A stretch of 64,000 nt of DNA from Bacteroidales bacterium (GCA_003249955.1 QKHS01000095.1:11299-75298); one strand, 5' to 3'. Positions 44,601-64,000 are shown, counted from the stretch's first letter. The notes: generated by a model not told the origin, from the sequence alone. Program-made: numbers and translations.

Positions 44601-47600
44601 GTTGCGACAGTCTGGTTACTCTGAACTTAACAATAAATAATTCTGCTACAGGAACAGATGTTATTACTGCATGTGATTCTTACACATGGATTGACGGAAT
44701 TACTTACACTGCAAGCAATAACACCGCTACTTTCAATATTGCAGGTGGTGCGGCTAACGGTTGCGACAGTCTGGTTACTCTTAACTTAACAATAAATAAT
44801 TCTGCTACAGGAACAGATGTTATTACTGCATGTGATTCTTACACATGGATTGACGGGATTACTTACACGGCCAGCAATAATACCGCTACTTTCAATATTG
44901 CTGGTGGAGCAGCAAATGGTTGCGACAGTCTGGTTACTCTTAACTTAACTATTAATAATTCTGCTACAGGAACTGACGTTATTACTGCATGTGATTCTTA
45001 CACATGGATTGACGGGGTTACTTACACCGCAAGTAATAATACTGCTACTTTCAATGTTGCCGGTGGGGCAGCAAATGGTTGCGACAGTCTGGTTACGCTA
45101 AATTTAACAATAAATAATTCTACTACAGGTACAGACCTTATTACTGCTTGTAATTCTTACACATGGATTGACGGTATTATTTACACGGCTAGCAATAATA
45201 CAGCTACTTTCAATATTGCCGGTGGGGCAGCAAATGGTTGCGACAGTCTGGTTACTCTGAACTTAACAATAAATAATTCTGCTACAGGAACAGATGTTAT
45301 TACCGCATGTGATTCTTACACATGGATTGACGGGATTACTTACACGGCCAGTAATAATACTGCTACTTTCAATATTGTTGGCGGAGCGGCAAATGGTTGC
45401 GACAGTCTGGTTACCCTGAACTTAACAATAAATAATTCTGCTACAGGAACAGATGTTATTACTGCATGTGATTCTTCTTACACATGGATTGACGGGGTTG
45501 CTTACACTGCAAGCAATAACACCGCTACTTTCAATATCGCTGGTGGAGCTGCAAATGGTTGCGATAGTCTGGTTACTTTGAATTTAACAATTAATCACTC
45601 AGCTACAGGTACAGACGTTATTACTGCCTGTGATTCTTACACATGGATTGACGGTATTACTTACACGGCAAGCAATAATACAGCTACTTTCAATATTGCC
45701 GGTGGGGCAGCAAATGGTTGCGACAGTCTGGTTACGCTGAATTTAACAATAAATAATTCTACTACAGGTACAGACGTTATTACTGCTTGTAATTCTTACA
45801 CATGGATTGACGGTATTATTTACACGGCTAGCAATAATACCGCTATATTCAATATTGCTGGTGGTGCGGCTAACGGTTGCGATAGCCTGGTTACACTGAA
45901 CCTAACTATTAATCACTCAGCTACAGGTACAGATGTAATTACTGCATGTGATTCCTACACATGGATTGATGGAATTACTTACACGGCAAGTAATAATACA
46001 GCTACTTTCAATATTGCAGGTGGAGCAGCTAACGGTTGTGACAGTCTGATTACTCTAAACTTAACTATTAATCACTCAGCTACAGGTACAGATGTAATTA
46101 CTGCATGTGATTCTTATACATGGATTGATGGAATTACTTACACTGCCAGCAATAACACTGCTACTTTCAATATTGTTGGTGGAGCAGCAAATGGTTGCGA
46201 CAGTCTGGTTACACTAAACTTAACTATTAATCACTCTGCTACAGGTACTGACGTTATTTCTGCTTGTGATTCTTACACATGGATTGACGGTATTACTTAC
46301 ACTTCAAGCAACAACACTGCTACTTTCAATATTGCCGGTGGAGCAGCAAATGGTTGCGACAGTCTGGTTACTCTGAACTTAACAATAAATCACTCTACTA
46401 CAGGAACCGATGTTATTTCTGCATGCGATTCTTACACATGGGTTGACGGTATCACTTACACTGCAAGCAACAACACGTCTACTTTCAATATTGTTGGTGG
46501 AGCAGCAAATGGTTGCGACAGTCTGGTTACACTAAACTTAACTATTAATCACTCTGCTACAGGTACTGACGCTATTACTGCATGCGATTCTTACACATGG
46601 ATCGACGGAATTACTTACACGGCAAGCAACAACACTGCTACTTTCAATATTGCTGGTGGTGCGGCTAACGGTTGTGACAGTCTGGTTACTCTGAACTTAA
46701 CAATAAATCACTCTGCTACAGGAACCGATGTTATTTCTGCATGTGATTCTTATACATGGATTGACGGAATTACTTACACTGCCAGCAATAACACTGCTAC
46801 TTTCAATATTGCTGGTGGAGCAGCTAACGGTTGCGATAGTCTGGTTACGCTGAATTTAACAATCAATCACTCAACAACCGGAACTGACGTAATTACAGCT
46901 TGTGATTCTTACACCTGGATTGACGGAATTACTTACACTGCAAGCAACAACACTGCTACTTTCAATATTGCCGGTGGTGCGGCTAACGGTTGCGATAGTC
47001 TGGTTACCCTAAACTTAACAATAAATAATTCTGCTACAGGAACCGATGTTATTTCTACTTGTGATTCTTACACATGGATCGACGGAATTACTTACACGGC
47101 CAACAACAACACGGCTACTTTCAATATTGCTGGTGGAGCAGCAAATGGTTGTGACAGTCTGGTTACTCTGAACTTAACAATAAATCACTCTGCTACAGGA
47201 ACCGATGTTATTTCTGCATGTGATTCTTACACATGGATTGACGGTATTACTTACACAGAAAGTAATAACACTGCTACTTTCAATATTGCAGGTGGGGCAG
47301 CTAACGGTTGTGATAGTCTGGTTACTCTTGATTTAACAATTGAAACCATAGACCTTAGCGTAACAACATCTGATAATATAATTGTTTCAAATCAGGATGG
47401 AGCTTCATATCAATGGATTGATTGCAGTACAAATCTGCCAATTGAAAATGAGACAAACCAAAGTTTTACCGCTACTGTAAACGGCGACTATGCAGTAATT
47501 GTCTCTTTGGGAACATGTAGCGACACATCTGCTTGTGAAAGCATTATTGTGGAAAATATAGAACCTGTTTCAGATATTCAGTTTAATATTTATCCGAACC

Positions 47601-47803
47601 CGAACAACGGGCAGTTTAAGCTTGATCTGAGTTCTGAAGCCACAATAGAAATTTCTGATGCCCTTGGAAGAATTATTTACTCAGAACAGCATCAATCAGG
47701 CACATCATTAATAAATCTTTACAATGAAGAAGCTTCTGTTTACTATCTAAGAGTTATTTCTAACGGGAAAATCAGTGTTCAGAAAGTTGTGGTGCACAAA
47801 TAA
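41654..47803 (+). CDS. Giant (2049 aa) T9SS cargo adhesin: a Pmp-like right-handed beta-helix, then a 53-aa two-cysteine tandem repeat array, then a type A C-terminal sorting domain
   Basis: Signal peptide. About 14 GGG(I/L/V)(Y/C/F) turns alternating with N-rich rungs (aa 1-830). 19-20 units like SATGTDVITACDSYTWIDGITYTASNNTATFNIAGGAANGCDSLVTLNLTINN. C-terminal FNIYPNPNNGQFKLDL...YYLRVISNGK. Confidence 0.9.
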   Translation: MKTIFTCLLFIIVAINVNASIIYVNHAATGANNGTSWANAYTDLEYAVIFAMSGDEIWVAKGTYYTSSTNDRSSSFALGNGVKLYGNFAGTETDINQRVGLIPDAAGTDRVNETILNGDIGVANDSTDNAYHIMYIVGNTLPVIIDGVKITGGNASIDPGKGIGSGIYIQSTNDVFLKNVIIANNTGTAGTYGKGGGLYVQTTTSFILENSAVIRNRIIDDPLVSTNAVYLGGGIYVSSPLTQISNCFIENNKIQSGRSDSEGGGLYIENNLNLDITNTSIINNSVISTSGSAKYLKGGGIACYGNATSVSNLNLNNISDNTITTSKGEARGGGSYLSSDTLKISDCYSNSNRINTSYTATVYNTSGCGMYAEVEKSTNITNSEFNMNSIYAGSASGGGLCLISSSADTASVQECQFSNNVLQSVGFSGSYLYGGGLFLGLKVRLNDCQINNNNANISATATSAYASKASNAYGGGVYSSNFAEFNNCSINSNTLHSDMTYNVDNNMTFPSISSRASGGGIYSSSKLILQNSSIDNNEAMSSIDSYYYWSSYFKGYCFGGGVCNDYTTSGQKSLISNCTINNNTSNSYSSYAYSEMKGGGIYSRNMDILNCEISNNDTYVDLSVAGGLNQGGGIYHEGTGKLYHNTISDNDASAGTGYISGGYTSYTYGGGLYSKSADPVSNCLIHNNSVTGRNKAYGGGIYNESSSVFSNLTVAKNTSYSSYTTPDNKGSGVYTNNSSAKFRNSIIYFNDLLSYYDQTTSSEVKNSVIQLYPNGATNFNIDPQFTDVAANDFHVSASSIAINRGDDSFIPSDITTDLDGNLRISGSSVDIGAYELDLCKSYTTIYDEICFGTPYIFNGQNLTASGIYKDTLTNVALCDSIITLNFTVNNPAYSTDVISACETYTWIDGLTYTTDNNTATFTYPGATADGCDSIVTLNLTINHATTGTDFITSCGSYTWIDEITYTASNNTATFNIAGGAANGCDSLVTLNLTINNSATGTDVITACDSYTWIDGITYTASNNTATFNIAGGAANGCDSLVTLNLTINNSATGTDVITACDSYTWIDGITYTASNNTATFNIAGGAANGCDSLVTLNLTINNSATGTDVITACDSYTWIDGVTYTASNNTATFNVAGGAANGCDSLVTLNLTINNSTTGTDLITACNSYTWIDGIIYTASNNTATFNIAGGAANGCDSLVTLNLTINNSATGTDVITACDSYTWIDGITYTASNNTATFNIVGGAANGCDSLVTLNLTINNSATGTDVITACDSSYTWIDGVAYTASNNTATFNIAGGAANGCDSLVTLNLTINHSATGTDVITACDSYTWIDGITYTASNNTATFNIAGGAANGCDSLVTLNLTINNSTTGTDVITACNSYTWIDGIIYTASNNTAIFNIAGGAANGCDSLVTLNLTINHSATGTDVITACDSYTWIDGITYTASNNTATFNIAGGAANGCDSLITLNLTINHSATGTDVITACDSYTWIDGITYTASNNTATFNIVGGAANGCDSLVTLNLTINHSATGTDVISACDSYTWIDGITYTSSNNTATFNIAGGAANGCDSLVTLNLTINHSTTGTDVISACDSYTWVDGITYTASNNTSTFNIVGGAANGCDSLVTLNLTINHSATGTDAITACDSYTWIDGITYTASNNTATFNIAGGAANGCDSLVTLNLTINHSATGTDVISACDSYTWIDGITYTASNNTATFNIAGGAANGCDSLVTLNLTINHSTTGTDVITACDSYTWIDGITYTASNNTATFNIAGGAANGCDSLVTLNLTINNSATGTDVISTCDSYTWIDGITYTANNNTATFNIAGGAANGCDSLVTLNLTINHSATGTDVISACDSYTWIDGITYTESNNTATFNIAGGAANGCDSLVTLDLTIETIDLSVTTSDNIIVSNQDGASYQWIDCSTNLPIENETNQSFTATVNGDYAVIVSLGTCSDTSACESIIVENIEPVSDIQFNIYPNPNNGQFKLDLSSEATIEISDALGRIIYSEQHQSGTSLINLYNEEASVYYLRVISNGKISVQKVVVHK
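44324..47347 (+). repeat. Nineteen contiguous in-frame 159-bp tandem repeats (one unit is 162 bp), preceded by one degenerate unit at about 44164-44323
   Basis: Unit boundaries were derived from the reading frame (unit n starts at 44324+159(n-2) up to unit 9). I counted units from the recurring TLNLTIN motif. Confidence 0.9.
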
Positions 47804-51693: not shown

Positions 51694-53280
51694 TCATTCT
51701 GACAAGCTGTCTTTTTTTAATTGATGATTAATTGCTTTTCGCATTGTTTTAAATTTTGGATGTAACGCTTTTGGCCGAAGCGAACTTTCTTTTAAGCTGA
51801 AAACTAGCAGACAAAACAGTCCCAATAAACACAACCATCCGTATATCTCTTTCAGGCTTACCATAATTGACTGCTGTTGCAGAACTCCCAAGAGTTCCCC
51901 CTGAGGAATTTGTTTTATTATCGGATTTACATGGTCGAGATTTGCACTCAGCAACATAAAGTTCTTCTTCATAATTAACTTAAATGCCCGGCTCAATATT
52001 GTTGTCCCCAATAAAGCTCCAATACAGGCACTTGCAAATGCCTGTATTGTAAGCGACTGAAAAAAGTTTTGAAACGGTACGGGCACAAGTGCTGTTATAA
52101 AAGTTATCGCAATAATTATATAGCCCATTCCTCTTAAAAACAAAGGTAATATCAGCATTTCCTTTGGCAAATTAAAGTCAATAATGAAATACATTACCAG
52201 CAAATACCCTATGATTAATAAAAATCCGATTAATGTCATTGTCTTATATTTCCACTTTCGCAGAGCAAAAACATGGTATGTAAACAATGTACCTGCAACA
52301 AACCCCAAAATAACTACCCAATTAAGCGAAATCGCATTTAGTGCATCATAACCCAGAACACCTTCTGTGTAGATATGTTCAAATAAATGTGCCGGACTAA
52401 GCAACAGGTCAACTAAAATGTAAAGTATAAATGTAAGCCATACATTTCGGTAACTCCATGTTTTCAATTCAATAAAAGGATGCCGGATAAATGAAGCACG
52501 CCAAAGATTAAGAGCTAAACTAACAACCCCGAATACCACGCCAAGCCGTATATATCCTGATTGAAACCAATCCAGATATTCACCGTAATTAAGCACAAAA
52601 ATAATGCTTAGTATTGTTGCCGACCATAAAAACAGTCCCATCCAGTCAATTCCATAGAGCGGGAGCTTCTTCATGGAGCGATAATTGCGAAAAGTTACAA
52701 TAGTTACTGACATTACTAACAATAAAAGTCCGACAACCAACCAATGCATGTATTTCCATGTGTGCAGGTATGAAACATAAACAGTTGTCAAACCGGAAAG
52801 CAGTATAGATGTCTGCACTAAAAAATAAATATAAACAAACCATACCGACATATCTCGCTTTGGAGTTATCCATAACATAATTGTTGTATTACAAGCAAAA
52901 GTTCCCCACATTCTTAAAAATCCGGCTACAAAAGACACCGCAACCAAAAGCGGTAAACTATGTGTATGCATACTTATCAGGTTACAGGCTATAAGTCCCA
53001 ATGCAGTAACGAGCAAACTTGTTTTTATCGGAAACCGGAATTTAAGCCGGTACATAAAAGTAAAGGTAAGAGCCAAACCTACTAATGATGCATATCCCGC
53101 CATCATTATGTCTTCTTGCATCAATGCCATCGAACCCGTCATTTCACTGACAGATGCCAGATATATACCACCTGACAACTGATAGACAATAACAAATACG
53201 ACAAGTATCCAAGGCTTTATCTTTTCGGGAATAAAGTTCCTGATATCAGGAATAAAAAAAGTTTTATTTTCGTGTTGCAT
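51694..53280 (-). CDS. Divergent MFS-type efflux permease (in the EmrB position of the operon)
   Basis: 528 aa with about 14 hydrophobic segments. It is the last gene of a TolC - membrane-fusion - permease operon. I did not see the canonical MFS motif A. Confidence 0.65.
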   Translation of the reverse strand: MQHENKTFFIPDIRNFIPEKIKPWILVVFVIVYQLSGGIYLASVSEMTGSMALMQEDIMMAGYASLVGLALTFTFMYRLKFRFPIKTSLLVTALGLIACNLISMHTHSLPLLVAVSFVAGFLRMWGTFACNTTIMLWITPKRDMSVWFVYIYFLVQTSILLSGLTTVYVSYLHTWKYMHWLVVGLLLLVMSVTIVTFRNYRSMKKLPLYGIDWMGLFLWSATILSIIFVLNYGEYLDWFQSGYIRLGVVFGVVSLALNLWRASFIRHPFIELKTWSYRNVWLTFILYILVDLLLSPAHLFEHIYTEGVLGYDALNAISLNWVVILGFVAGTLFTYHVFALRKWKYKTMTLIGFLLIIGYLLVMYFIIDFNLPKEMLILPLFLRGMGYIIIAITFITALVPVPFQNFFQSLTIQAFASACIGALLGTTILSRAFKLIMKKNFMLLSANLDHVNPIIKQIPQGELLGVLQQQSIMVSLKEIYGWLCLLGLFCLLVFSLKESSLRPKALHPKFKTMRKAINHQLKKDSLSE

Positions 53281-53285
53281 AAGGT

Positions 53286-54320
53286 TTAATACTTTACTTC
53301 ACATTCCACATTCATACCAGTGCGTAAAAGCGATAAATCTTTTGCCTCGTTAGTCTCAGAAAATTCTATACGAACCGGAATGCGTTGTGCTACTTTAACA
53401 AAATTACCTGCAGAATTATCCTGAGGAAAAAGAGAAAAACTTGCTCCCGTAGCTCTCGAGATAGACTTTACTTTTCCTGTAAATATTTTGTCGGGCAATG
53501 CATCTACTTTAATTTCGACGATTTGTCCTTCTTTTATGTTATCTATCTGCGTTTCTTTAAAATTGGCAATTATCCACTTTTCTGTTTCATTTACCAGATC
53601 CAGTACGTTTTGTCCGGGTTGAACAAGTTGTCCCTCTTCAATAACTTTACGACCTGTGAAGCCATCGCATGGCGCAATAATTACAGTATAGGACAAATTA
53701 AGTTTTGCAAGTTCCAACGCAGCTTCTGCTAATTTTATCAGGGCATCATTCTGATCCAGACGCAAAGTTTGCTCATCTTTTACCAACGAAGTTGTATTAC
53801 GCATTCCCAGCATTTGTTCGTAACGGGCCCTGGCAGCATCATAATTAGTCTTAACATCATCAAACTGCTGTTTGGTAACAGCTTCCTGTTCCAGCAAATT
53901 TTTATATCTATTATATTCTTTTTCTGCATTTTCCATTAATATGCGACTTTCTTCAATTCCGGATTCAGAAACTACAATATTGCTCTGGGTCGTAAGAATT
54001 GTAGTTCCCATAGCTTTTTTCCCGGCTATGGCGTTTTGGTAATCTGCTTCAGCCTGTGCCAGGCGATATCGGTATTCCATATCTTCAATAACCAAAAGAG
54101 TATCTCCTTTGCTAACACTCTGATATTCATCAAAATATATCTTTTTAATATAACCCTGAACTCTTGTATTTATAGGAACTATCTGCTGTTTTACCTGTGC
54201 ATTATCTGTAAACTCTACATTCCCAAAATGAACGAAACGACTCCAGACCCAAATTATGCAAGCTACCAACAATCCTCCGACTACTATATTGTACACCAAT
54301 TTCATTTTCTTACTTTTCAT
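53286..54320 (-). CDS. HlyD/EmrA-family membrane fusion protein
   Basis: One N-terminal transmembrane segment, a biotinyl-lipoyl-like GYIKKIYFDEYQSVSKGDTLLVIED, a coiled-coil region and a beta-barrel tail. Confidence 0.85.
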   Translation of the reverse strand: MKSKKMKLVYNIVVGGLLVACIIWVWSRFVHFGNVEFTDNAQVKQQIVPINTRVQGYIKKIYFDEYQSVSKGDTLLVIEDMEYRYRLAQAEADYQNAIAGKKAMGTTILTTQSNIVVSESGIEESRILMENAEKEYNRYKNLLEQEAVTKQQFDDVKTNYDAARARYEQMLGMRNTTSLVKDEQTLRLDQNDALIKLAEAALELAKLNLSYTVIIAPCDGFTGRKVIEEGQLVQPGQNVLDLVNETEKWIIANFKETQIDNIKEGQIVEIKVDALPDKIFTGKVKSISRATGASFSLFPQDNSAGNFVKVAQRIPVRIEFSETNEAKDLSLLRTGMNVECEVKY

Positions 54321-54362
54321 ATTATTTCAATTTGATTATTCCTGACTTATAAATTTCTATAA

Positions 54363-55682
54363 CTACAACTTACCTGTTTCCCAAAGTAATTTTAAATGGC
54401 TGTAAACAACATTAAGATTTGCGTTTACTACCTGCAATTCTGCATTAAGCTTCATATTACTTGCATCTAACATTTCTGTGATTAATGCCAGATCGTTCAG
54501 GTAACGGTTATTAATTACAGCGTAGTTTTCCTTAGCAAGCTGAAAACTCTTTTCGTAAGCATATAGCTTGTCAAATGATTCCAGATATTTTGTGTATGCA
54601 GAATTAATTGCGATCTGAGCATGTTCCGATTCTGCATCATAGATGTAATTTGCAATATTCCTGCGACTTTTTGCAAGACGCACATCTGAGGAAGACGAAT
54701 AAAGAGAGGCGACATTGTATTTTATTCCGACTCCTACATACCAGTAATTAAGATTTTTGTTAATAGGAGGCACTTCAAAAGTTATCGGACCATTCAGATT
54801 TTCAGCTCCAATAATCGCCACCGCTGGATAGAAATTTGCTTTTACCAATCTTATCTCAGTTTCAGCAATATCCTTTTGTAAACCTGCTATTTGCAAATTA
54901 AATCTGTTTTTTTCGGCTATCTGCATCAATTCACTCATGGGTTGTTGTAGCAGATTAATGTTTTGAATAGTTGTATCGGGAAGAACTATTGTTTCTGCCG
55001 GTAAGCCAAGAGTAACAACCAGACTTTGATTTATTATACTGATATTATTTTCTATCTCAATAAGAGAAAGTTTAAGGTTTTGCAACATCAGCTCATAACG
55101 GGTAAGGTCATTGCTGAGTACCATTCCTTCTTTCTGTTTAGCCAGAACCTGTTTAATAATCACTTCGGTTTGTTCAATATTCTTCAGAAAAACCTTACGT
55201 TGATTATAAAGATTGTATAAATCCAGATACTGTCCTGCAACCAAAAACCTCATGTCAGAAATATTATTATTGTGTGCAAGCTGAGCAACCTGAGCCTCCA
55301 GATTTGCTTTTTCAATAGCGTTTGTAACTGCTCCTCCGGCAAAGACAAGATATGAAGCTTCAACAGAAAAATTATTACCCAGATGAGGTATCGGGGCATT
55401 AAAGCTGTTCGAAAAATTACGATCAAGAATAGCAGCATCTCCCATATATAATACTGAAACTCCTACGTCAATTGTTGGTAACTGAGAATTTTTTACAACT
55501 AAAACAGATTGTTGTGCTGTCTCAGAAACAGATTGGGATATTTTTAACTGCGTACTATTACGTTCTACTAATAAAAAAGCAGAATCTAATGAGATTACAA
55601 TTCCGTTATTAATTTGTGAAAATATGTTTTGCGCAACCAGTATTGATAGCATTAACAAATAAGTTCTTATTTTCATGTTCAT
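54363..55682 (-). CDS. TolC-family outer-membrane efflux protein
   Basis: Signal peptide and two internally repeated helical/beta halves, with a length and pattern typical of TolC/OprM-like proteins. The start could be either ATG, at 55682 or 55676. Confidence 0.8.
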   Translation of the reverse strand: MNMKIRTYLLMLSILVAQNIFSQINNGIVISLDSAFLLVERNSTQLKISQSVSETAQQSVLVVKNSQLPTIDVGVSVLYMGDAAILDRNFSNSFNAPIPHLGNNFSVEASYLVFAGGAVTNAIEKANLEAQVAQLAHNNNISDMRFLVAGQYLDLYNLYNQRKVFLKNIEQTEVIIKQVLAKQKEGMVLSNDLTRYELMLQNLKLSLIEIENNISIINQSLVVTLGLPAETIVLPDTTIQNINLLQQPMSELMQIAEKNRFNLQIAGLQKDIAETEIRLVKANFYPAVAIIGAENLNGPITFEVPPINKNLNYWYVGVGIKYNVASLYSSSSDVRLAKSRRNIANYIYDAESEHAQIAINSAYTKYLESFDKLYAYEKSFQLAKENYAVINNRYLNDLALITEMLDASNMKLNAELQVVNANLNVVYSHLKLLWETGKL

Positions 55683-55828
55683 TTTTTAAATTTTAAATCA
55701 GGGGGCAAAAGTCGGATTCTATTCGTGCAAACTACTTTTCATTTTTACTACAATATTTGTCAATATTTCCACAAAAATTATTTTTATAGCATAAATTATA
55801 TTATTTTTATAGTCAAAATAAGAAATGC

Positions 55829-56677
55829 ATGAATCCGCAAAGCAGTAGTTTTACTAAGCCCGATTTATCGGAAGAAGACATGACAATGTCTCTGAATAAC
55901 AACTCATTACCCTTATCCGGCAAGTTAACAAAATCAGGACGCTGTATAGTTTGTTATTGTTTAAAAGGATGGGCAGATATGGAAGTTAACTTAACGAAAC
56001 ATCGCTTTGTTGAATCGGAAATAATGGTACTCTTCCCGACTCAAATTGTGCAACAAAATGAGGTAAGCAGTGATTTCTCTGTAATGTATTTTTCAATTTC
56101 GCCAACAATGCTGCTTGAAGTTACATTTCGGTTTCCCCCTGATTTTATAAGTTTCTTGCGACAACATTTCTATTATAAAGTCAGCTCCGATTTACTACAG
56201 GAAGAACAAGTCCGCTTTGCTGTAATTCAGCAAAAGTTTTATGATAAAGATAATTATTGCCGCAGAGAGATATTGGTAAATTTTATACGCATATTCTTTT
56301 TGGAATTATATGATAAAATTCGCAGAGACGAATTAACCAACCCCGGGTCAAGACATAACAGAAGATCTGAAATTTTTGAAGAATTTATTAATTTGGTAAT
56401 GCGTAACTATAAATCAAACCGGGATGTTTGTTTCTATGCAAATACTTTATGCATTTCTCCCAAATACCTGTCAGTGATTACTATGGAGCTAAGCGGAAAC
56501 GGAGCCAAAGAATGGATTGACGACTATGTAATTTTAGAATTGAAAATCCGTTTAAAATCGACACAGGACAGTTTGCAGAAAATTGCAGACGAATTAAATT
56601 TTGCAGATCAGGCATTTTTATCAAAATACTTCAAGCTTCGCACCGGTCTGTCTCCAAGAGATTTTAGAAAAATGTAG
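55829..56677 (+). CDS. AraC-family transcriptional regulator, divergent from the efflux operon
   Basis: C-terminal double HTH: ANTLCISPKYLSVITMELSG...IADELNFADQAFLSKYFKLRTGLSPRDFR. Confidence 0.85.
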   Translation: MNPQSSSFTKPDLSEEDMTMSLNNNSLPLSGKLTKSGRCIVCYCLKGWADMEVNLTKHRFVESEIMVLFPTQIVQQNEVSSDFSVMYFSISPTMLLEVTFRFPPDFISFLRQHFYYKVSSDLLQEEQVRFAVIQQKFYDKDNYCRREILVNFIRIFFLELYDKIRRDELTNPGSRHNRRSEIFEEFINLVMRNYKSNRDVCFYANTLCISPKYLSVITMELSGNGAKEWIDDYVILELKIRLKSTQDSLQKIADELNFADQAFLSKYFKLRTGLSPRDFRKM

Positions 56678-56938: not shown

Positions 56939-57532
56939 ATGACAAGAGAAGAACACTTAAAATTTTGTAAGATTTGTAAAAATCAGACTTTCGATTTTAA
57001 ACAGGGTATAATATGTGGCCTTACAGGTAAGCAAGCAAACTTTGATTTAAAATGCAATTCTTTTTATGAAGATATAAAACTGAAAGCTGAAGCAGAATCC
57101 AAAATTACTGAAAATGAATTAATAACCAAAACTGCGGGTCAGGGAAAGAGATTTGCAAATTTTCTATTAGACTATATATTCCTGATTGTTATCAGTATGA
57201 TTTTCGGGGCAGGTCTGGGAATTGTGATTGCTATTATATCTCCGCAATCTGTTTCTTTTTTTGATGCTGATAATAAACTCATAAATTATTTCTTCGGATT
57301 TGTTGTAGGAATGATATATTACACATTTCTTGAATTTGCCACAGGAAGAACAATTGCCAAATTTATAACAAAGACAAAAGTTGTAACCGAAAAAGGCGAA
57401 AAACCTGATTTAGGGTCAATTTTAGTACGATCTCTATGCAGATTTATTCCTTTCGAGCCTTTTTCATTCCTGGGCTCTGATGCTTCCGGCTGGCATGATA
57501 AATTATCTAAAACAAAAGTGATTGAAGTATAA
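56939..57532 (+). CDS. RDD-family membrane protein with an N-terminal Cys-rich (zinc-ribbon-like) segment
   Basis: CKICKNQ...CGL...CNSF is followed by an RFANFLLDYIFL-type RDD core with transmembrane segments. Confidence 0.7.
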   Translation: MTREEHLKFCKICKNQTFDFKQGIICGLTGKQANFDLKCNSFYEDIKLKAEAESKITENELITKTAGQGKRFANFLLDYIFLIVISMIFGAGLGIVIAIISPQSVSFFDADNKLINYFFGFVVGMIYYTFLEFATGRTIAKFITKTKVVTEKGEKPDLGSILVRSLCRFIPFEPFSFLGSDASGWHDKLSKTKVIEV

Positions 57533-57636: not shown

Positions 57637-58311
57637 TCAGAACTTAAACTTATATCCTGCCTGAAAAACAAAATCAGTAAGCGGATTTTTTGTAAAATAT
57701 TCTTTTTGCACCATATATCCTAAATCGATGGAATGCATTTTATTAAAAGAATATCCTATACCGGCACAGATTCTGATTTTATCCAAAGGTTTATACCCGT
57801 TGTAAAAAACCGGAAAATATGCTTCTGCAGACAAATATGGTTCTGTTTTTCCAAGCTTGTACTTAATACTGTACTTAGGCCTTACGGCAGAACGTGTGCT
57901 ACCGTCTGAGTCAAAAACAAATATATTCTTTTGCTGAATCTGAAATCTTAACCTTAAAGACATATCAAAATTACCAACCCCGGTTTTATAGGAATAATCA
58001 GCATAAATTTTACTTCCCGGAATATATTGATTGTTAAGTTGCAATTGATAAAAGTATCTGTAAAACAGGGAAACCTGTGACTTCTTATCAAATTTATAGT
58101 TCACCCCTATTTCGTTTATTATGCTTCTTAATTCGGAAACATTCTCATTAAATCTGGAATCGTGTGCAAATTCCACCGAGAAAGCCTGAGTAATCTGTTT
58201 TTCGACCCCGAATCCTGCCCATACTCCTGCATCATTTACCTGCGAACAGACATTCGTGAATAAACTGGCACAAAATAACAGCGGAAGAAATATTTTTACT
58301 GCTTTATTCAT
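57637..58311 (-). CDS. DUF2490-like outer-membrane beta-barrel protein
   Basis: Signal peptide, alternating beta-strand pattern (WAGFGVEKQI, VEFAHDSRF, IGVNYKF...) and a terminal aromatic beta-signal, GYKFKF. Confidence 0.7.
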   Translation of the reverse strand: MNKAVKIFLPLLFCASLFTNVCSQVNDAGVWAGFGVEKQITQAFSVEFAHDSRFNENVSELRSIINEIGVNYKFDKKSQVSLFYRYFYQLQLNNQYIPGSKIYADYSYKTGVGNFDMSLRLRFQIQQKNIFVFDSDGSTRSAVRPKYSIKYKLGKTEPYLSAEAYFPVFYNGYKPLDKIRICAGIGYSFNKMHSIDLGYMVQKEYFTKNPLTDFVFQAGYKFKF

Positions 58312-59086
58312 AAAAATATATCTTTATTATTGCGGCATCTTTCAGCAAATTTATCTGTCCGATTACTATTCTGTGAATATTAAAACCGGTACGCTTCTTA
58401 AGATCTTCTATCAGCTCTTCTCTCCTTTCCGGAAGTATCAGGTCAAGGTTATCATATAGTACCTTCCGTGAAGATTCTCTTTTCAGGATTAACCTGCTGT
58501 CGAGAATAAAAATAAAAAAAATCAGAATCGAATTTATTATAATTAATTCGTAAAATTCGAGCCGGATAGCACTGATAAGACCGATTGCAATAAATATGAA
58601 CAAATAAGTCATATCTTTCATTGAAATGCCTGAGGTACGGTATCTCAACATCGAAAAAACTGCAAAAAGGCCGAAAGCGGCTCCCATGGATATTTTTACT
58701 TCATTAAGTACATAAGTAAGCAGGAATATCACCACATTAAACAAAATAAAAGTAAAAATATATCCCAGCTTTTTATTCCTCGGGTAATAAATAAGAAATA
58801 TTATCAAAAGAACAGAGCTTACATCTATCAACAAATTGATAAAAAAGTCTGCGTTTAACTTTATAACATCTTTTTCTTTGTCTTTCTTTTTCTTCGACTC
58901 CTTTACTTCCTGTGTTTTGGTATTAACAAGAGAATCGGCTCCGGTTGTTTCTTCCTGAGAAGACTGTTCCCAGACTTCACCTGTAGTTATTGTTTCTGTA
59001 TTTTCCTGTGCTGAAACCAAAACAGGCTGAAACATTGCGAAACCTGTGACAAATGTCAAAATCATTAAAATCCTGTATATTTTCAT
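58304..59086 (-). CDS. DUF4956-like polytopic membrane protein
   Basis: Signal-like N-terminus, a charged linker (SKKKKDKEKD), four to five transmembrane segments, and a soluble tail of about 65 aa (VLYDNLDLILPERREELIEDLKKRTGFNIHRIVIG). The family call is from memory of its typical pairing with VTC-domain genes. Confidence 0.65.
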   Translation of the reverse strand: MKIYRILMILTFVTGFAMFQPVLVSAQENTETITTGEVWEQSSQEETTGADSLVNTKTQEVKESKKKKDKEKDVIKLNADFFINLLIDVSSVLLIIFLIYYPRNKKLGYIFTFILFNVVIFLLTYVLNEVKISMGAAFGLFAVFSMLRYRTSGISMKDMTYLFIFIAIGLISAIRLEFYELIIINSILIFFIFILDSRLILKRESSRKVLYDNLDLILPERREELIEDLKKRTGFNIHRIVIGQINLLKDAAIIKIYFYE

Positions 59087-59118
59087 ATTCCTGAAATTTA
59101 TTTTCCTGTTTTTATTAG

Positions 59119-59895
59119 TTAATTTTCTATTCCGGGTTTAATCACATCTTCCCCGGAACAAAGCTTATTTACAAACCTTATTTTTTCTTTAATATTATTT
59201 TTTTTCACCTCCGGGTATAAACTTGCTATTCCAAGGCAATATTTACTAAGAGAACTTTCAAAGATTCTTTTTTCTCTTAAAATTTCCCTTAAAGGAGATC
59301 TGGCCGATTTATCCTGTTTAAGTTCTAAAATACATAACCCGGAATAACCGGCAGATGAAGTTTCGTTTTTAAAGTTAAGTCCTGTATCAATGGTAAGTCT
59401 CTCTGTAAAAGCTTTGTTTACCAGAGTAATGCGCGAGTAGGCCACATCGACAACAGGAATTATTTCTTTATATTTATCTGTGCATGATTTTAAAAAATTT
59501 TTGTAGCTTTTCTCTTTAAGAGAATCAGAATCCGGAATCGGAATTCTGTTTTTTGAAGTCTTTGAATGATTATTTTTAACTTTTATTTCCAGAAAACTCT
59601 GTCCTGTCTCCATATAAGTACGTAATCTTATTTTAAGCCTGGAAAAACGTCCACACTGGTGCTGATAATAAAAATAAAAATATGGGGTATCATAATACAG
59701 GGTTCTATAATTGCTCATTCTTACCCCGTTAATTTCAAGTATAAAATAATCATCTTCAAGCTTTAACAAAAGATCAGACAAATCAGATACTTTTATTAAA
59801 AACTTGGTATCCACCCTGTTCAGCAATTTAACAGAATCAATCTGGGAGAGCTGAACCGGTTCAAAGTCATTCAATATGTCGTTAAAGCTTTTCAA
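59119..59895 (-). CDS. VTC-domain (polyphosphate-polymerase-like, triphosphate-tunnel fold) protein
   Basis: No signal peptide. Alternating charged beta-strand motifs typical of tunnel enzymes: RVDTKFLI, RLKIRLRTY, FLEIKVKN, ILELKQDK, then SKYCLG. The start codon is TTG at 59895. Confidence 0.7.
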   Translation of the reverse strand: MKSFNDILNDFEPVQLSQIDSVKLLNRVDTKFLIKVSDLSDLLLKLEDDYFILEINGVRMSNYRTLYYDTPYFYFYYQHQCGRFSRLKIRLRTYMETGQSFLEIKVKNNHSKTSKNRIPIPDSDSLKEKSYKNFLKSCTDKYKEIIPVVDVAYSRITLVNKAFTERLTIDTGLNFKNETSSAGYSGLCILELKQDKSARSPLREILREKRIFESSLSKYCLGIASLYPEVKKNNIKEKIRFVNKLCSGEDVIKPGIEN

Positions 59896-59899
59896 AAGA

Positions 59900-60385
59900 C
59901 TAATAACTTGTGTATGAGTATTTTTTTACCCACCTTAACTCTCCCTTAGAGTTGTATTCTTTGGCATCTTTTTTCAGCCCTTTATTATCGGTTGAATATA
60001 CCTGTTTACTGATTATATTACCCTCGCTGTCGGTTTTTATTTCTTCTGTTTTCTCCCCTTTTGCATCATATTTATAAACCGTCTTTTCTGTCTTTCCCGA
60101 CTTTTTCTCATAATCGGTTTTTTCGGTAACATTACCAAAATTGTCATACTTAAAAGTTTCTTTTGATTTTACTTCGCCCGACTTGTTAAACTCCTGTTTA
60201 AGAACAGTATTGCCGTTTTTATCGTATTCCTCATACGATTCCTTATAAGTGACAGTTACGCCATCTTTCTGTTCTGTTTTTTCCGTAGTTCTCGACTTTA
60301 TTTTATTCGATTTTAACTCCGTTTTACTTTGAGAGAACCCGATAACCGGAACAATCATTAACAAGAAAAATATTATCTTTTTCAT
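59900..60385 (-). CDS. Small exported Lys/Glu/Thr-rich protein with short YD-like repeats
   Basis: Signal peptide MKKIIFFLLMIVPVIGFSQ. Repeated xYxYDxxGN-type units: YEEYDKNGN, FKYDNFGN, YKYDAKGE and VYSTDNKG. Confidence 0.6.
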   Translation of the reverse strand: MKKIIFFLLMIVPVIGFSQSKTELKSNKIKSRTTEKTEQKDGVTVTYKESYEEYDKNGNTVLKQEFNKSGEVKSKETFKYDNFGNVTEKTDYEKKSGKTEKTVYKYDAKGEKTEEIKTDSEGNIISKQVYSTDNKGLKKDAKEYNSKGELRWVKKYSYTSY

Positions 60386-60389
60386 AATC

Positions 60390-60806
60390 CTAATTATAAA
60401 TTATTATTTGCGGAACTGCCAAAACCTGATCACTTTCGGTAATTTCGACTTCTTTTACTATTGCAATATTTCCATCCGGAGAGGTAAGTGTCGAATCTTC
60501 GGAAAAGACATAAATTGTGTATTTACCGGGTCTCAGATAATTAAACCTGTAATATCCCTGATAATCTGTTTCCACCTTATCGTCATATCCTACATTTTCA
60601 CCATAAACGATATAAACATCTTCCTTTGCTCCGGCATACTCACTTATAAGTGATGTGTAAGTACTGTTATAATTACGTACCCAAACAGACCCTGTTATCG
60701 TTGCGTTACCGCCTTCGCCCGGAGACTTTTCACAGGAAGTAAAAACCAAAGCTGCAAATACGGTAATAGCAACTGCCACCTGACTAACAAAACTTCGTTT
60801 CAACAT
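60390..60806 (-). CDS. Carboxypeptidase-regulatory-like domain lipoprotein
   Basis: Lipobox VFTSCEK. A single Ig-like domain carries YQGYYRFNYLRPGKYTIYV, typical of CarboxypepD_reg. Confidence 0.65.
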   Translation of the reverse strand: MLKRSFVSQVAVAITVFAALVFTSCEKSPGEGGNATITGSVWVRNYNSTYTSLISEYAGAKEDVYIVYGENVGYDDKVETDYQGYYRFNYLRPGKYTIYVFSEDSTLTSPDGNIAIVKEVEITESDQVLAVPQIIIYN

Positions 60807-60850
60807 AATATTAAATTTATTTTATTCATTACAAATCTATACTAATAATT

Positions 60851-63142
60851 TTATAATTTAACAAACACAGAAGATCTCACATTACACTCCGAAACCACAC
60901 TTACATAGTAAACAGAGGGTTTCCACGTTTTTATATCTATGGCTATTGAGAAATAATCATTCCCTATCGGACCGGAACTGTACATAAGTTCACCTGCGGA
61001 ATTATAAATTAAAACGTTTGTAATGCTTTCTAAAGATGCAAGTTCCAGATATACCTCATCCGCAGACGGTACCGGATAAACCAGAATAGTATTGTTTATA
61101 TTTTCCGGCTGAGAATTAAATGCTCCGGGTGTCGGCACCAGCACAGAGCTTTGATTATACCCGTCAGGGAATCTTCCGACACTGCGATTATCTGAGCATA
61201 TCCCGGGCAAAAAGCAATCAACCTGAATATCAGAATCTGACATTAATTCTACAACATCTTCGTTTTGTTCATTTAACTCTGTTGAATATACGTCGGCCTG
61301 ACCAGGATAAGCAAGTAAAAATCCCCTGCCGGCTATTGTAGTATCCACAATATCAAAACCAGTCCCATGACAACGGATATTAATATTTTTCAAAAATAAT
61401 TTTTCTTCTCCCGGATTAAAAATTTCTATAGCTTCAATATCACTCAACCCGGCAACATCTCCAAAATCATAATTGTTGTAAATAATTTCATTTATTACAA
61501 TATCCCCTTGCTCTGTTCTTACAGGCACATTAAAAAACTCATATGCTGCACGTTCCGGCAAAAATGATCCTGACGAATCGTTTTCGGCCCAGAAGTAATA
61601 CTCAAAATTTTTACCTGCCGGAGTAATTTCTGCATAAAATAATGAGTCTCCGGCACACACATCCCCGTTTGTTCCGTCATCATACATAACAGAAGCTGTA
61701 AAAACCCCGTTACTCTTATCCCTGTGATACACCCATACTTTTTGGGCTCCGGAAACTTTAACTGTAATCCCCAGATTATGGTTACGTATTGCAATAGTGG
61801 CTGAAAGCTCAGGTTCTCCAAATACCGGATATCCTGAAATGCCCGGGTACGTTTCGATATAAGCAGCACGGGATTCCATTAAATCCTGAATTCCGGGAAA
61901 TTGCTCTGTTGATAAGCCGGTAGTAGAATACAGATTTTCTTCAAAATCTTCATTTGAATAAAATTTATTGGTATCTGCTTCTACATAATCCGCAATCAAA
62001 TCATGAAGTAGTTCCCCTGTCTCAAGATAGCTTCCGTTATTTATATTTTCGTTTATAATTGTCCGCAAATGAGCAAGATACATTTTTCTGTATGTAGAAT
62101 TCAAAAACAGATTTTTCATCAAAGGCCGCGGCGAAATCGAAAATGTCATATGCTGTAACGGGTTAAGAAGCGGCAATTTTGTCATTGTAACTCCCTGAAA
62201 GTTTGTTGCCCCGTCCGAATGTCTGAAACTACCAAACGACATGTTTAAATCCCACGGAATTGTATTAAACTGCAGATTCTCATCCTGATAAACATAAAAA
62301 TTCTGAGCATACGCGATATAACTATCCAGATTTAGTATGGCATAATTAAATGCATGCATCCACAAAGCTCTGTCAACGTTTAATACTGTTGTAATGTTTG
62401 CCGTATCGTTATTAAGAACGTTAATAAAATTGAAAAGCTCTTCCCAGCCATATTTCGATTCAAGGCTATAATAAGGCATATATCCCGATGAATCTTCGCC
62501 ATGAGTATAGGCAAGATTTGCATTCTGCCCGAATGGATATGACAGAGTCTCCGGATTTCCTTTAAAAAACGGGTTGTTTTTATCTCCGAAATGTTTATCA
62601 GCAAAGCACTCGTCCACCGCCTCTACATTGGTGTAAAGCCCTATAAGAGTATCATTAATATAAACATTGGCAAAATTTGCTTCTGATGCAGGCATATACT
62701 TACGTGCAATGCCATAAGCCAGAACTTCGCGCACAAAAGAAGGATCGTAAATTACATTGGAAAGCTTTAATTTTTTGTAACCCTGATGATTCTGATTTAC
62801 ATATGTGTAATCAAGATTAATGCTAAACGGATTCTTGACCTCATCTGCATTCCATGAACTGAATCCTTTGTATCTTATCCCGCATTTTTTATAAAGATCC
62901 CCGTCTATTTCCACATCTGCTTTAATTCTGGAATAGGTATCACCAGCTAAAAACAGTGAATCAAGAATATATTTCCAGTTATCGTCTTCAAAATAAATTT
63001 TTATTTCTCTAACCGAACCGCTGTCATAAAACCCTTCCTGGGAAAATGCGCTTACTGCACATATTAAAACAAGAGTAAGAGTAAAATAAAATCTTTTAAA
63101 CGATCTCAAAGACTTTAAATATTTTAATATTAAATGAGGCAT
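60851..63142 (-). CDS. CotH-family kinase-like protein with a lamin-tail-like domain and a T9SS type A C-terminal sorting domain
   Basis: Signal peptide. CotH-like N-terminal two thirds (IRYKGFSSWNADEVKNPFSINLDY...KKLKLSNVIYDPSFVREVLAY...). LTD-like IVINEIIYNN...IEIFNPGE at about 61160-61510. C-terminal LVYPVPSADEVYLEL...VYYVSVV. Confidence 0.75.
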   Translation of the reverse strand: MPHLILKYLKSLRSFKRFYFTLTLVLICAVSAFSQEGFYDSGSVREIKIYFEDDNWKYILDSLFLAGDTYSRIKADVEIDGDLYKKCGIRYKGFSSWNADEVKNPFSINLDYTYVNQNHQGYKKLKLSNVIYDPSFVREVLAYGIARKYMPASEANFANVYINDTLIGLYTNVEAVDECFADKHFGDKNNPFFKGNPETLSYPFGQNANLAYTHGEDSSGYMPYYSLESKYGWEELFNFINVLNNDTANITTVLNVDRALWMHAFNYAILNLDSYIAYAQNFYVYQDENLQFNTIPWDLNMSFGSFRHSDGATNFQGVTMTKLPLLNPLQHMTFSISPRPLMKNLFLNSTYRKMYLAHLRTIINENINNGSYLETGELLHDLIADYVEADTNKFYSNEDFEENLYSTTGLSTEQFPGIQDLMESRAAYIETYPGISGYPVFGEPELSATIAIRNHNLGITVKVSGAQKVWVYHRDKSNGVFTASVMYDDGTNGDVCAGDSLFYAEITPAGKNFEYYFWAENDSSGSFLPERAAYEFFNVPVRTEQGDIVINEIIYNNYDFGDVAGLSDIEAIEIFNPGEEKLFLKNINIRCHGTGFDIVDTTIAGRGFLLAYPGQADVYSTELNEQNEDVVELMSDSDIQVDCFLPGICSDNRSVGRFPDGYNQSSVLVPTPGAFNSQPENINNTILVYPVPSADEVYLELASLESITNVLIYNSAGELMYSSGPIGNDYFSIAIDIKTWKPSVYYVSVVSECNVRSSVFVKL

Positions 63143-64000
63143 TTATTTCTTCTGTATTTTTGCTGAAAACTCTTTACCCTTATCCTCAAATTTTATTAAA
63201 TATACACCTTGTGGCAAAGAATGCAAATCAATTACATAAGTAGCAGAAGTTGTTTTATCTGTTACATTTTTACCGGTAATGTCAAAAATATTGTATGAAT
63301 ATCCGTCACTCATATTTGTAACTGAAATAAAATCAAAACACGGATTAGGATATACATTTGCTGAAGGCAGGTAATAATGACTTGCTACTCCGGCATTCAG
63401 ATCCATCTTTGAAACTCCGTTTCCGGTAGATATCCATGCATCTCCGTCGTTATCTATTTTTATCTTTTTCACCAACACATCTACCAGTCCGTCATCAACG
63501 CTGTAAATAGTCCAGTTTGTTCCGTTATAGACGGTTACACTGCCTTCGGCCAGATAATCGGCATATTCACATGCCCATATATTACCATTATCATCAATTG
63601 CAATATCTTTTATAAAATTATTGTAAAGCCCGTCTTCCGTAGTATAATTTTCCACCCAGACATCTGATGAATTAAAAACAGAAATTCCCGAATAAGTTCC
63701 TATAAGTTTGTTGCCACCGGCATCAATTGCAATGCTGCAAACATAATCTCCGAGTAAACCGTTGCCGGTATTATAGACAACTGTAAATGCTGATCCGTTA
63801 TATTTTACAACCCCGTTTGCCCATGTGCCTATCCAGATATTACCGGAATTGTCAGCGCATAAATAGCTGATTAAATCATCTGATGGCAATCCGTCCTCAG
63901 AAGTATAATTTGTAAAATCTGTACCGTTAAATTTTGTCAGTCCGCTGTTGCTGGCAATCCAGACATTTCCCGAGTAATCAGGGGTAATAAAGACAATAGA
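63143..64000 (-). CDS. Beta-propeller repeat (two-component-regulator-propeller-like) T9SS cargo protein, truncated at its N-terminal end by the window edge
   Basis: The track ORF begins at TTG 63889. My manual translation stays open to position 64000 and continues the repeat (SGNVWIASNSGLTKFNGTDFTNYTSEDGLPSDD). The C-terminal NVYPNPCFDFISV...VYLIKF is a type A sorting domain. Its stop codon directly abuts the CotH start codon. Confidence 0.75.
   Translation of the reverse strand, partial: SIVFITPDYSGNVWIASNSGLTKFNGTDFTNYTSEDGLPSDDLISYLCADNSGNIWIGTWANGVVKYNGSAFTVVYNTGNGLLGDYVCSIAIDAGGNKLIGTYSGISVFNSSDVWVENYTTEDGLYNNFIKDIAIDDNGNIWACEYADYLAEGSVTVYNGTNWTIYSVDDGLVDVLVKKIKIDNDGDAWISTGNGVSKMDLNAGVASHYYLPSANVYPNPCFDFISVTNMSDGYSYNIFDITGKNVTDKTTSATYVIDLHSLPQGVYLIKFEDKGKEFSAKIQKK

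Follow-up and report, generated by a model that had tools for sequence, protein, structure and literature searches.

Bacterial polyphosphate (polyP) is attributed to PPK1 and PPK2, and in eukaryotes the polymer is the product of the VTC complex, a combined synthase and translocase. Whitfield et al. (2020, PMC7112168) described genes for a CotH protein, a polyP polymerase and a DUF4956 protein that follow the pel operons of streptococci, clostridia and bifidobacteria. In S. intermedius this trio (SIR_1592-1594) includes a CotH predicted to be secreted and is uncharacterised, and the study describing it found the trio only within pel operons (bioRxiv 10.1101/2024.04.20.589940). The C. perfringens locus NELoc-2 carries two VTC-domain genes, each followed by a gene for a cytoplasmic-membrane protein annotated as tubulin/FtsZ, with a CotH gene beside the second pair; these membrane proteins are possibly DUF4956. 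Here we analysed a 64,000-nucleotide stretch of Bacteroidales DNA (GCA_003249955.1 QKHS01000095.1:11299-75298, hereafter the window), in which a cluster on the minus strand at 57637-64000 contains the same three families together with a DUF2490 outer-membrane protein and further exported proteins. We tentatively read this cluster, with somewhat less than even confidence, as a bacterial analogue, split into separate proteins, of the eukaryotic VTC synthase-translocase, with an outer-membrane conduit and variable surface partners added. The initial annotation, made from the sequence alone, had held that no function is assigned to the bacterial combination. It is still uncharacterised, but it had already been pointed out beside Gram-positive pel operons in the two studies cited above.

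The gene at the centre of this reading (59119-59895, minus strand) starts at TTG and encodes a stand-alone triphosphate-tunnel enzyme of 258 amino acids (aa), a predicted polyphosphate polymerase. The protein matches every position of the Pfam VTC profile (PF09359, positions 1-235 of 235, E 9.5e-30, 104.3 bits against a cut-off of 23) and consists of that domain only. It has no signal peptide, transmembrane (TM) segment or SPX domain, in agreement with the cytoplasmic location proposed earlier. An AlphaFold2 model built with 63 homologues has a pLDDT of 93.2, and in a Foldseek search of the PDB its matches at ranks 1-12 were all tunnel domains of yeast Vtc4, Vtc3 or Vtc2 (TM-score 0.57-0.66; best 3g3r, E 4.7e-12, TM-score 0.66/0.60), whereas generic triphosphatases including ygiF reached only 0.40-0.49. 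The VTC sequence profile found nothing among PDB sequences at E <=0.01, and a marginal match to Vtc2 (0.0046) appeared when E values up to 10 were admitted.

Residues of the active site were mapped by pairwise global alignment of the window protein to Vtc4 residues 239-460, which were recovered from the alignments of PDB sequence searches. In this map R90/R92 correspond to Vtc4 R264/R266, K105 to K281, Y153 to Y359, R155 to R361, R166 to R373, E191 to E426, and S217/K218 to S457/K458. A VTC cryo-EM preprint reports that the mapped residues bind triphosphate and Mn2+ and are required for polyP synthesis, and that K458 is the sole position to differ in the non-catalytic Vtc2 and Vtc3, which have Ile or Leu there. 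Seven of the eight Vtc4 residues needed for polyP synthesis by mutagenesis, along with the Mn-binding E426, are identical in the window protein, and R90, R92, K105, Y153, R155, E191, S217 and K218 are invariant across the 63 homologues. Two more invariant residues, R27 and K31, lie on the first long strand and may be equivalent to Vtc4 K200, a position outside the 239-460 span of the alignment. Because the Vtc4 ligand residues and the K458 equivalent are invariant and the fold is closest to Vtc4, the enzyme looks, from sequence and model, like an active Vtc4-type polymerase and not a degenerate relative. A word-indexed search on the polymerase listed 5,717 protein clusters at 90% identity.

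The tunnel fold alone would also suit a tri-/polyphosphatase or nucleotide cyclase of the CYTH superfamily, one that takes part in signalling or scavenges phosphate, DUF4956 being its sensor in the membrane. Two studies (PMC8233210, PMC3440374) describe most of the studied bacterial CYTH or triphosphate tunnel metalloenzymes as phosphatases or cyclases, and in other phyla the gene has neighbours suited to phosphate scavenging (a phytase-like esterase, an acid phosphatase and phn genes). A non-polymerase of this kind is nevertheless very unlikely in our judgement, given a fold and sequence nearer to Vtc4 than to any triphosphatase and the invariance of the polymerase-specific lysine (Vtc4 K458).

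The next gene (58304-59086, minus strand) encodes a DUF4956 protein (Pfam, 1.4e-48), predicted to lie in the inner membrane. In its AlphaFold2 model (pLDDT 71.5), a signal-peptide-like N-terminus leads into an acidic, disordered tail that closes with KKKKDKEKD, then into five TM helices and finally, at the C-terminus, into a beta-alpha-beta-beta domain with a pLDDT of about 90; this bears out the earlier description of a polytopic inner-membrane protein. If the N-terminus is exported, a chain crossing the membrane five times would leave this last domain in the cytoplasm, on the same side as the VTC enzyme. DUF4956 is more strongly conserved than the enzyme itself, and the segment SMGAAFGLFAVFSMLRYRTxGISMKDMTYLF in TM3-TM4 is invariant or near-invariant in 57 homologues and recognisable in a Deinococcus protein. 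The S. intermedius preprint places the streptococcal homologue in the MgtC/SapB family (bioRxiv 10.1101/2024.04.20.589940). That assignment was rejected here, as none of 57 members matched Pfam MgtC at E values up to 5, and hhalign gave probabilities of 0.08% against E. coli YhiD and 0.3% against a five-member MgtC profile; the resemblance is limited to the overall layout, a small alpha/beta domain coming after the TM helices. The tail of the window protein (KTQEVKESKKKKDKEKDVIK, 58880-58940, residues about 50-70) is acidic and rich in Ser and Lys, reaching 75% D/E/S/K in a 20-residue window, and by the composition criterion applied here it qualifies as a candidate polyP-binding 'PASK' motif. 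Such tails occur in 9 of 79 DUF4956 homologues and in 3 of 829 other neighbour genes, an enrichment that is clade-specific.

Overlapping DUF4956 is the last gene of the cluster (57637-58311, minus strand), which encodes a 224-aa DUF2490 protein (PF10677, 3e-26, 92.7 bits against a cut-off of 29.8). The protein begins with a signal peptide and ends in KFKF, consistent with the outer-membrane beta-barrel predicted for it in the initial annotation, and 39 of 69 homologues likewise terminate in Phe. The family is listed in TCDB as putative porin family 1.B.81, with function unassigned (PMC4827864). Published AlphaFold models class DUF2490 proteins as outer-membrane barrels, and the barrel fold is taken here from that literature.

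Conservation of these genes was followed in a census of VTC loci. At least 595 stretches encode VTC relatives, counting one genome per species, and 80 Bacteroidota loci and four metagenomic places were examined. In 83 of 84 loci, hidden Markov models (HMMs) made from the window proteins detected DUF4956 beside VTC; a contig end accounts for the remaining locus. The two genes often overlap where they have been called (14 nt in loci L001 and L094). When 1,175 neighbour genes were clustered, the families ranked in the order VTC, DUF4956, DUF2490, a K-rich YD protein, an immunoglobulin-like (Ig-like) lipoprotein and CotH. Among the 52 Bacteroidota loci flanked by 4 kb or more on either side, and as lower bounds, the same-strand run with VTC includes DUF2490 in 45 (usually overlapping DUF4956), the K-rich YD protein in 30, the Ig-like lipoprotein in 27, CotH in 14, Cthe_2159 in 12 and a repeat-rich protein of 550 aa secreted by the type IX secretion system (T9SS) in 7. 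Any secreted partner, be it CotH, Cthe_2159, the repeat-rich protein or a small protein bearing a C-terminal domain (CTD) of T9SS type, is present in 34 of the 52. The conserved core is thus VTC plus DUF4956; Bacteroidota add DUF2490 and two small exported proteins, and CotH is facultative. The association of VTC and DUF4956 anticipated by the initial annotation is therefore conserved, whereas its single seven-gene envelope module is not upheld: the obligate pair is joined by DUF2490 in Bacteroidota, and the secreted partner varies, CotH being one option among several.

Five arrangements of these genes were distinguished. The window type (A) runs from an optional ASST-like (arylsulfotransferase-like) gene and an optional propeller gene through CotH, lipoprotein, YD protein, VTC and DUF4956 to DUF2490, and is present in at least 16 species. 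In type B, VTC-DUF4956-DUF2490 is followed by a small T9SS-CTD protein and Cthe_2159 in either order. Type C has the order lipoprotein, DUF2490, repeat protein, YD protein, VTC, DUF4956; type D is lipoprotein-YD-VTC-DUF4956-DUF2490 alone; and type E is VTC-DUF4956 with or without DUF2490. The VTC proteins of type A species are only about 40-65% identical to that of the window, and recurrence of one gene order in at least 16 species with such divergent enzymes makes the arrangement far from chance.

Several proteins take the place of CotH elsewhere. A Cthe_2159-family beta-helix protein lies beside VTC-DUF4956-DUF2490 in 15 loci (L014, L026, L028, L067 and 11 others), several of them labelled Bacteroidaceae. 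A protein of roughly 150 aa with only a T9SS C-terminal domain was seen in 14 loci, and CotH is absent from the Cthe_2159-type runs. In ten loci (L044:7826-9496, L070:7858-9510 and eight others) the CotH position is held by the 550-aa T9SS cargo protein, which is made of roughly 45-residue 'DIYAQR...W' repeats. The idea that this protein (10 species) is a divergent CotH was discarded, since hhalign aligned the C-terminal sorting domain only and Pfam found no CotH domain. In eight loci (among them L001:10126-11912, L005, L008, L020, L037 and L070) the neighbours of the cluster include a LytS-type histidine kinase and a response regulator of the LytTR type, which are not found in the window and may form a dedicated regulator. 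Contigs labelled Candidatus Methanoperedens nitroreducens, Akkermansia sp. and Hydrocarboniphaga daqingensis (L015, L024 and L057) have VTC-DUF4956 44-45% identical to that of the window, like most Bacteroidota loci, and are probably mis-binned or contaminating contigs.

The two small exported proteins are encoded directly upstream of VTC. The K-rich YD/RHS-repeat protein (59900-60385, minus strand, 161 aa) is predicted to be exported and has a YD repeat at 1.9e-5, with RHS_repeat (25.4 bits, Pfam) and TIGR01643 (20.2 bits, NCBIfam) both above cut-off. It contains 20% lysine and has a net charge of +8. Across 45 species the family has a median lysine content of 18%, against 6.8% in background genes, and net charges of 0 to +10. 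The lipoprotein (60390-60806, minus strand, 138 aa), also a predicted exported protein, has a lipobox-like ...VFTSC motif and weak Ig-like and CarboxypepD_reg matches, the latter at 1.2e-3, which supports a beta-sandwich fold only. The position of its gene, immediately before those for the YD protein and VTC, is conserved.

Upstream of the lipoprotein gene lies cotH (60851-63142, minus strand), encoding a kinase-fold protein of 763 aa that is predicted to be secreted (PF08757, 1e-39, 137.5 bits against a cut-off of 23.8). The protein has a signal-peptide-like N-terminus (...LVLICAVSAFSQEG), a CotH domain at about residues 89-428, a weak lamin-tail-like beta-sandwich (6.4e-5, supporting that fold only) and a T9SS C-terminal domain. 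As a single sequence it found no match among PDB sequences; a profile of 18 homologues matched 5JD9, the structure of B. cereus CotH, over residues 55-355 (E 8.7e-31). D273 (NLDSY) and D298 (PWDLN) align with the NFDG and PWDYD motifs of 5JD9 and are invariant in the 18 homologues. In B. subtilis CotH, mutation of the catalytic D228 or the metal-binding D251 inactivates the kinase (PMC7821199); the offset between B. subtilis and B. cereus numbering was deduced from the 23-residue spacing. Since both aspartates are invariant and aligned with residues required in B. subtilis, the kinase core appears from its sequence to be intact in a protein built for export. The T9SS domain ascribed to it earlier was confirmed at the level of the family: the tail as a single sequence scores 22.2 bits, below the Por_Secre_tail cut-off of 27, but the family profile matches the solved T9SS C-terminal domains 8GLK and 8GLJ (E 1e-10 and 2e-7).

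The seventh gene, also on the minus strand, is open to the window edge (63143-64000) and comprises the last 285 codons for a beta-propeller protein (Pfam Reg_prop, 1.4e-11) with a type A T9SS sorting domain, which the initial annotation had called and which is above the cut-off (Por_Secre_tail 2.3e-12, 47.5 bits against 27). In L088, another assembly carrying the same genes that was reached through the DUF4956 protein of the window, the complete propeller protein has 407 aa; an exact look-up of the window VTC protein gave no record. The propeller position is also occupied in L001, L005, L008, L012, L079, L081 and L094. Upstream of the propeller in L088 (L088:2-1168), past the right edge of the window, is a T9SS cargo gene with weak similarity to ASST and PKD domains, and clear ASST-T9SS genes stand at the same position in L001, L005, L008, L079, L081 and L094, as well as in L089, which has no VTC. 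In the periplasm, ASST carries out group transfer with no need for a nucleotide donor.

All seven minus-strand open reading frames and their near-contiguous coordinates were confirmed on the window sequence, as were the spacings given in the initial annotation. From the propeller gene to DUF4956 the gaps are 0, 44, 4, 4 and 32 nt, the propeller stop codon (TAA) immediately abutting the CotH ATG, and DUF4956 and DUF2490 overlap by 8 nt. The domain families named at that stage likewise held for CotH, VTC, DUF4956, DUF2490, YD and the propeller; CarboxypepD_reg and lamin-tail fell below the Pfam cut-offs. A hairpin scan found no terminator-like structure in any intergenic gap of the cluster, and scans of the window for sigma-70 promoters and terminators gave results at chance level, being uninformative for Bacteroidota. 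Within the 44 nt that separate CotH from the lipoprotein gene lies TTTG-N22-TAGATTTG (60832-60865, minus strand), with the -7-like motif TAGATTTG at 60839-60832. This resembles the Bacteroidetes -33/-7 promoter and is a candidate internal promoter for the VTC genes; the motif is not enriched in the window as a whole (84 found against 87.6 expected). In the census, TAnnTTTG was found near 31 of 83 VTC starts, 8 of 31 lipoprotein-gene starts, 3 of 82 DUF4956 starts and 1 of 70 DUF2490 starts, compared with 8.4% of random windows. Enrichment at the first core gene and near absence at the DUF4956 and DUF2490 starts fit co-transcription of the core from its first gene.

How closely CotH belongs with the core was also viewed from the CotH side. 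Seven CotH loci were sampled from the homologue list. Two have VTC-DUF4956-DUF2490, both with a lamin-tail and T9SS CotH and with ASST-like and propeller genes; three have tandem pairs of 540-aa CotH proteins; L089 has an ASST-like gene, a CotH with a lamin-tail domain and a propeller gene but no VTC; and one has neither arrangement. A CotH search of a plasmid collection returned three weak Bacillales matches only. In light of this reverse census the window cluster is best read as two modules side by side.

The pair is not confined to Bacteroidota and extends to Deinococcota and Alphaproteobacteria. VTC and DUF4956 are also adjacent in Deinococcus, Aminobacter, Shinella and Nitratireductor. 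Deinococcus taeanensis has a contiguous CotH-VTC-DUF4956 set whose CotH carries a signal peptide, and in Deinococcus sp. QL22 the pair lies beside an acid phosphatase and phnCDE. In Aminobacter and Shinella DUF4956-VTC is followed by a phytase-like esterase, which has a signal peptide in Aminobacter, and in Nitratireductor an inorganic phosphate transporter is encoded in the same run. The CotH-VTC-DUF4956 trio therefore spans four phyla, Deinococcota and Bacteroidota in addition to Bacillota and Actinomycetota (PMC7112168), and the Bacteroidota and Deinococcus cases show that it exists outside pel operons too.

These distributions bear on whether CotH has anything to do with the VTC genes. The two modules may be mere neighbours, the T9SS cargo set of ASST-like, propeller and CotH proteins being functionally independent of polyP, and L089, the five of seven sampled CotH loci without VTC, the presence of CotH at just 14 of 52 VTC loci and the plausible -33/-7 promoter in the 44-nt gap of the window all speak for such independence. 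Against it, the same juxtaposition and order recur in at least 16 Bacteroidota species, CotH also stands beside VTC-DUF4956 in Bacillota, Actinomycetota, C. perfringens and Deinococcus, and a promoter motif between the modules is absent from 13 of the 18 Bacteroidota loci that have CotH directly upstream. Such recurrence is hard to explain without a functional link, and we regard independence as somewhat unlikely.

Our preferred reading, the split VTC analogue, draws on the Vtc4-like enzyme, its pairing with DUF4956 across phyla, the DUF2490 barrel in Bacteroidota, the promoter motif at the first core gene, the phosphate-related neighbours in other phyla and the secreted partners in 34 of 52 loci. 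It would work as follows. The genes at 57637-60806 would form a first module, a split bacterial version of the VTC polyphosphate synthase-translocase. As its fold and active-site conservation suggest, the VTC enzyme would polymerise the gamma-phosphate of ATP into polyP at the inner face of the cytoplasmic membrane. DUF4956 may oligomerise and pass the growing chain across the inner membrane, and in Bacteroidota the DUF2490 barrel may carry the chain through, or anchor it at, the outer membrane, while dealing with the polyanion in the periplasm or on the cell surface might fall to the Ig-like lipoprotein and the Lys-rich YD protein, the latter by binding it. The second module, from 60851 to beyond 64000 and continuing upstream, would be the T9SS cargo set of ASST-like, propeller and CotH proteins, placed before the first module in this lineage. 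CotH would be an optional partner and a candidate user of surface polyP as phosphoryl donor, substrate or scaffold, because a kinase fold that appears catalytically intact is predicted to leave the cytoplasm for surroundings with little ATP. PolyP export and the use of polyP by CotH as phosphoryl donor are put forward by pure inference. In its fullest form the scheme would be a third, VTC-type bacterial polyP route amounting to a synthase-dependent secretion system for an inorganic polymer, with VTC/DUF4956 threading the chain, DUF2490 passing it across the outer membrane and surface polyP serving as donor or scaffold for CotH and other T9SS cargo; this we consider improbable as it stands. If true, surface polyP would explain how kinase-fold enzymes work in an ATP-free compartment.

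A number of observations weigh against the split VTC analogue. A literature search found no biochemical evidence of polyP made by any bacterial VTC-domain protein, and no experimental work on bacterial VTC-domain proteins or DUF4956. The counterpart of Vtc4 K200 has no direct mapping in the window enzyme, the monomer model of DUF4956 (pLDDT 71) has no visible pore, and a Lys-rich or PASK-like periplasmic tail was rejected as a general DUF4956 trait, being confined to close relatives of the window protein (9-10 of the diverse homologues). The alphaproteobacterial pairs examined have no annotated DUF2490 alongside. CotH is absent from most VTC loci, as is VTC from most sampled CotH loci. A purely cytoplasmic polyP synthase is a rival reading, in which the product of VTC would stay inside, DUF4956 would tether the enzyme or regulate it allosterically through an ACT-like domain, and the exported neighbours would be co-regulated without ever meeting polyP. 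Cytoplasmic polyP made by PPK is tolerated by bacteria, and the C-terminal domain of DUF4956 gave weak ACT-like matches (E 0.3-1). Two points count for this rival and against the split analogue alike. A Foldseek search with the DUF4956 model gave no match below E 0.1, and the protein was rejected as a homologue of the Vtc1-type channel or of any solved transporter; and the S. intermedius preprint suggests that polyP may remain in the cytoplasm (bioRxiv 10.1101/2024.04.20.589940). A cytoplasmic synthase nevertheless leaves unexplained the DUF2490 barrel gene that overlaps DUF4956 in 45 of 52 Bacteroidota loci and the accompanying genes, almost all of which encode exported proteins; moreover, DUF4956 conservation peaks in the membrane (TM3-TM4) and not in the soluble domain. 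We hold the cytoplasmic account to be distinctly unlikely.

Beyond the end of the cluster, the window encodes an RDD-family membrane protein (56939-57532, plus strand) that is convergent with the cluster and has an N-terminal Cys-rich, zinc-ribbon-like segment. Past it are a TolC-like outer-membrane factor and a membrane-fusion protein (53286-56677), an MFS-like protein of 528 aa (51694-53280) and a divergent AraC regulator; together these appear to form a tripartite efflux system with no relation to the cluster. Farther away (41654-47803, plus strand) is a T9SS cargo protein of 2049 aa with a match to bpX5 of the MoxR-vWA-beta-propeller system and a Por_Secre_tail domain. The nearest relatives are metagenome-assembled genomes of Bacteroidales. 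The core also occurs in gut Bacteroidaceae including B. thetaiotaomicron, where the DUF4956 and DUF2490 genes are adjacent (BT3498-99), which makes genetics feasible.

Among described systems, the CotH-CotG-CotB spore-coat module of B. subtilis shares the CotH kinase fold with both catalytic Asp residues kept, and there too the kinase gene lies beside genes for small Lys/Ser/Thr-rich proteins. The window differs in belonging to the non-sporulating Bacteroidales and in that its Lys-rich neighbour tracks VTC and not CotH. The signal peptide and T9SS domain of the window CotH suggest that it acts outside the cytoplasm, unlike the mother-cell CotH of B. subtilis. The pel-associated cotH/polymerase/DUF4956(/DUF4832) set has the same three families contiguous on one strand, a predicted secreted CotH and a cytoplasmic VTC with intact catalytic residues. 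In contrast to that set, no Pel gene is found among the 25 commonest neighbour families of 80 loci, as far as annotated, and the window is flanked by the RDD protein, AraC regulator, efflux system and ASST-like T9SS protein and not by a pelDEADAFG operon. There is no DUF4832; the trio stands alone in a diderm, accompanied by a DUF2490 barrel and two extra small exported proteins, and the window-type CotH bears a T9SS sorting domain and is replaceable by Cthe_2159 or other cargo.

Synthase-dependent secretion of alginate, poly-N-acetylglucosamine (PNAG), cellulose and Pel uses an inner-membrane polymerase, a membrane partner, an outer-membrane beta-barrel from the same operon and periplasmic accessories. 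The logic of the window cluster would match these systems by analogy only: its polymer would be inorganic, it has no glycosyltransferase, TPR scaffold or c-di-GMP receptor, and any kinship of DUF2490 to AlgE, PgaA and BcsC would be conjectural. With PPK1 and PPK2 the shared feature would be the product, polyP from a nucleoside triphosphate, made here by an enzyme of unrelated fold (triphosphate tunnel metalloenzyme) that would be membrane-coupled, with a predicted destination of the polymer outside the cytoplasm. If active, VTC-type polymerases in several phyla would be a third class of bacterial polyP synthase, and if DUF4956 and DUF2490 export the polymer, theirs would be the first dedicated bacterial polyP export route and a source of surface or extracellular polyP. 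The cluster would also make testable which phosphoryl donor is used outside the cell by secreted kinase-fold proteins such as CotH.

Our reading likens the cluster to the eukaryotic VTC complex (Vtc4 with Vtc1/2/3; PDB 3G3R, 7YTJ, 8I6V). The bacterial enzyme, whose activity is predicted, is a stand-alone protein without SPX or fused TM domain; its partner DUF4956, with five TM helices and an ACT-like domain, is unrelated to the Vtc1-type subunits of three TM helices; and in Bacteroidota the set is enlarged by an outer-membrane barrel and by accessory proteins that are exported. Common to both are the catalytic tunnel fold and the triphosphate and Mn ligands, including the K458 equivalent, and in both the enzyme is obligately paired with a small polytopic membrane protein, which suggests that synthesis may be coupled to membrane transit in the bacterial system as well.

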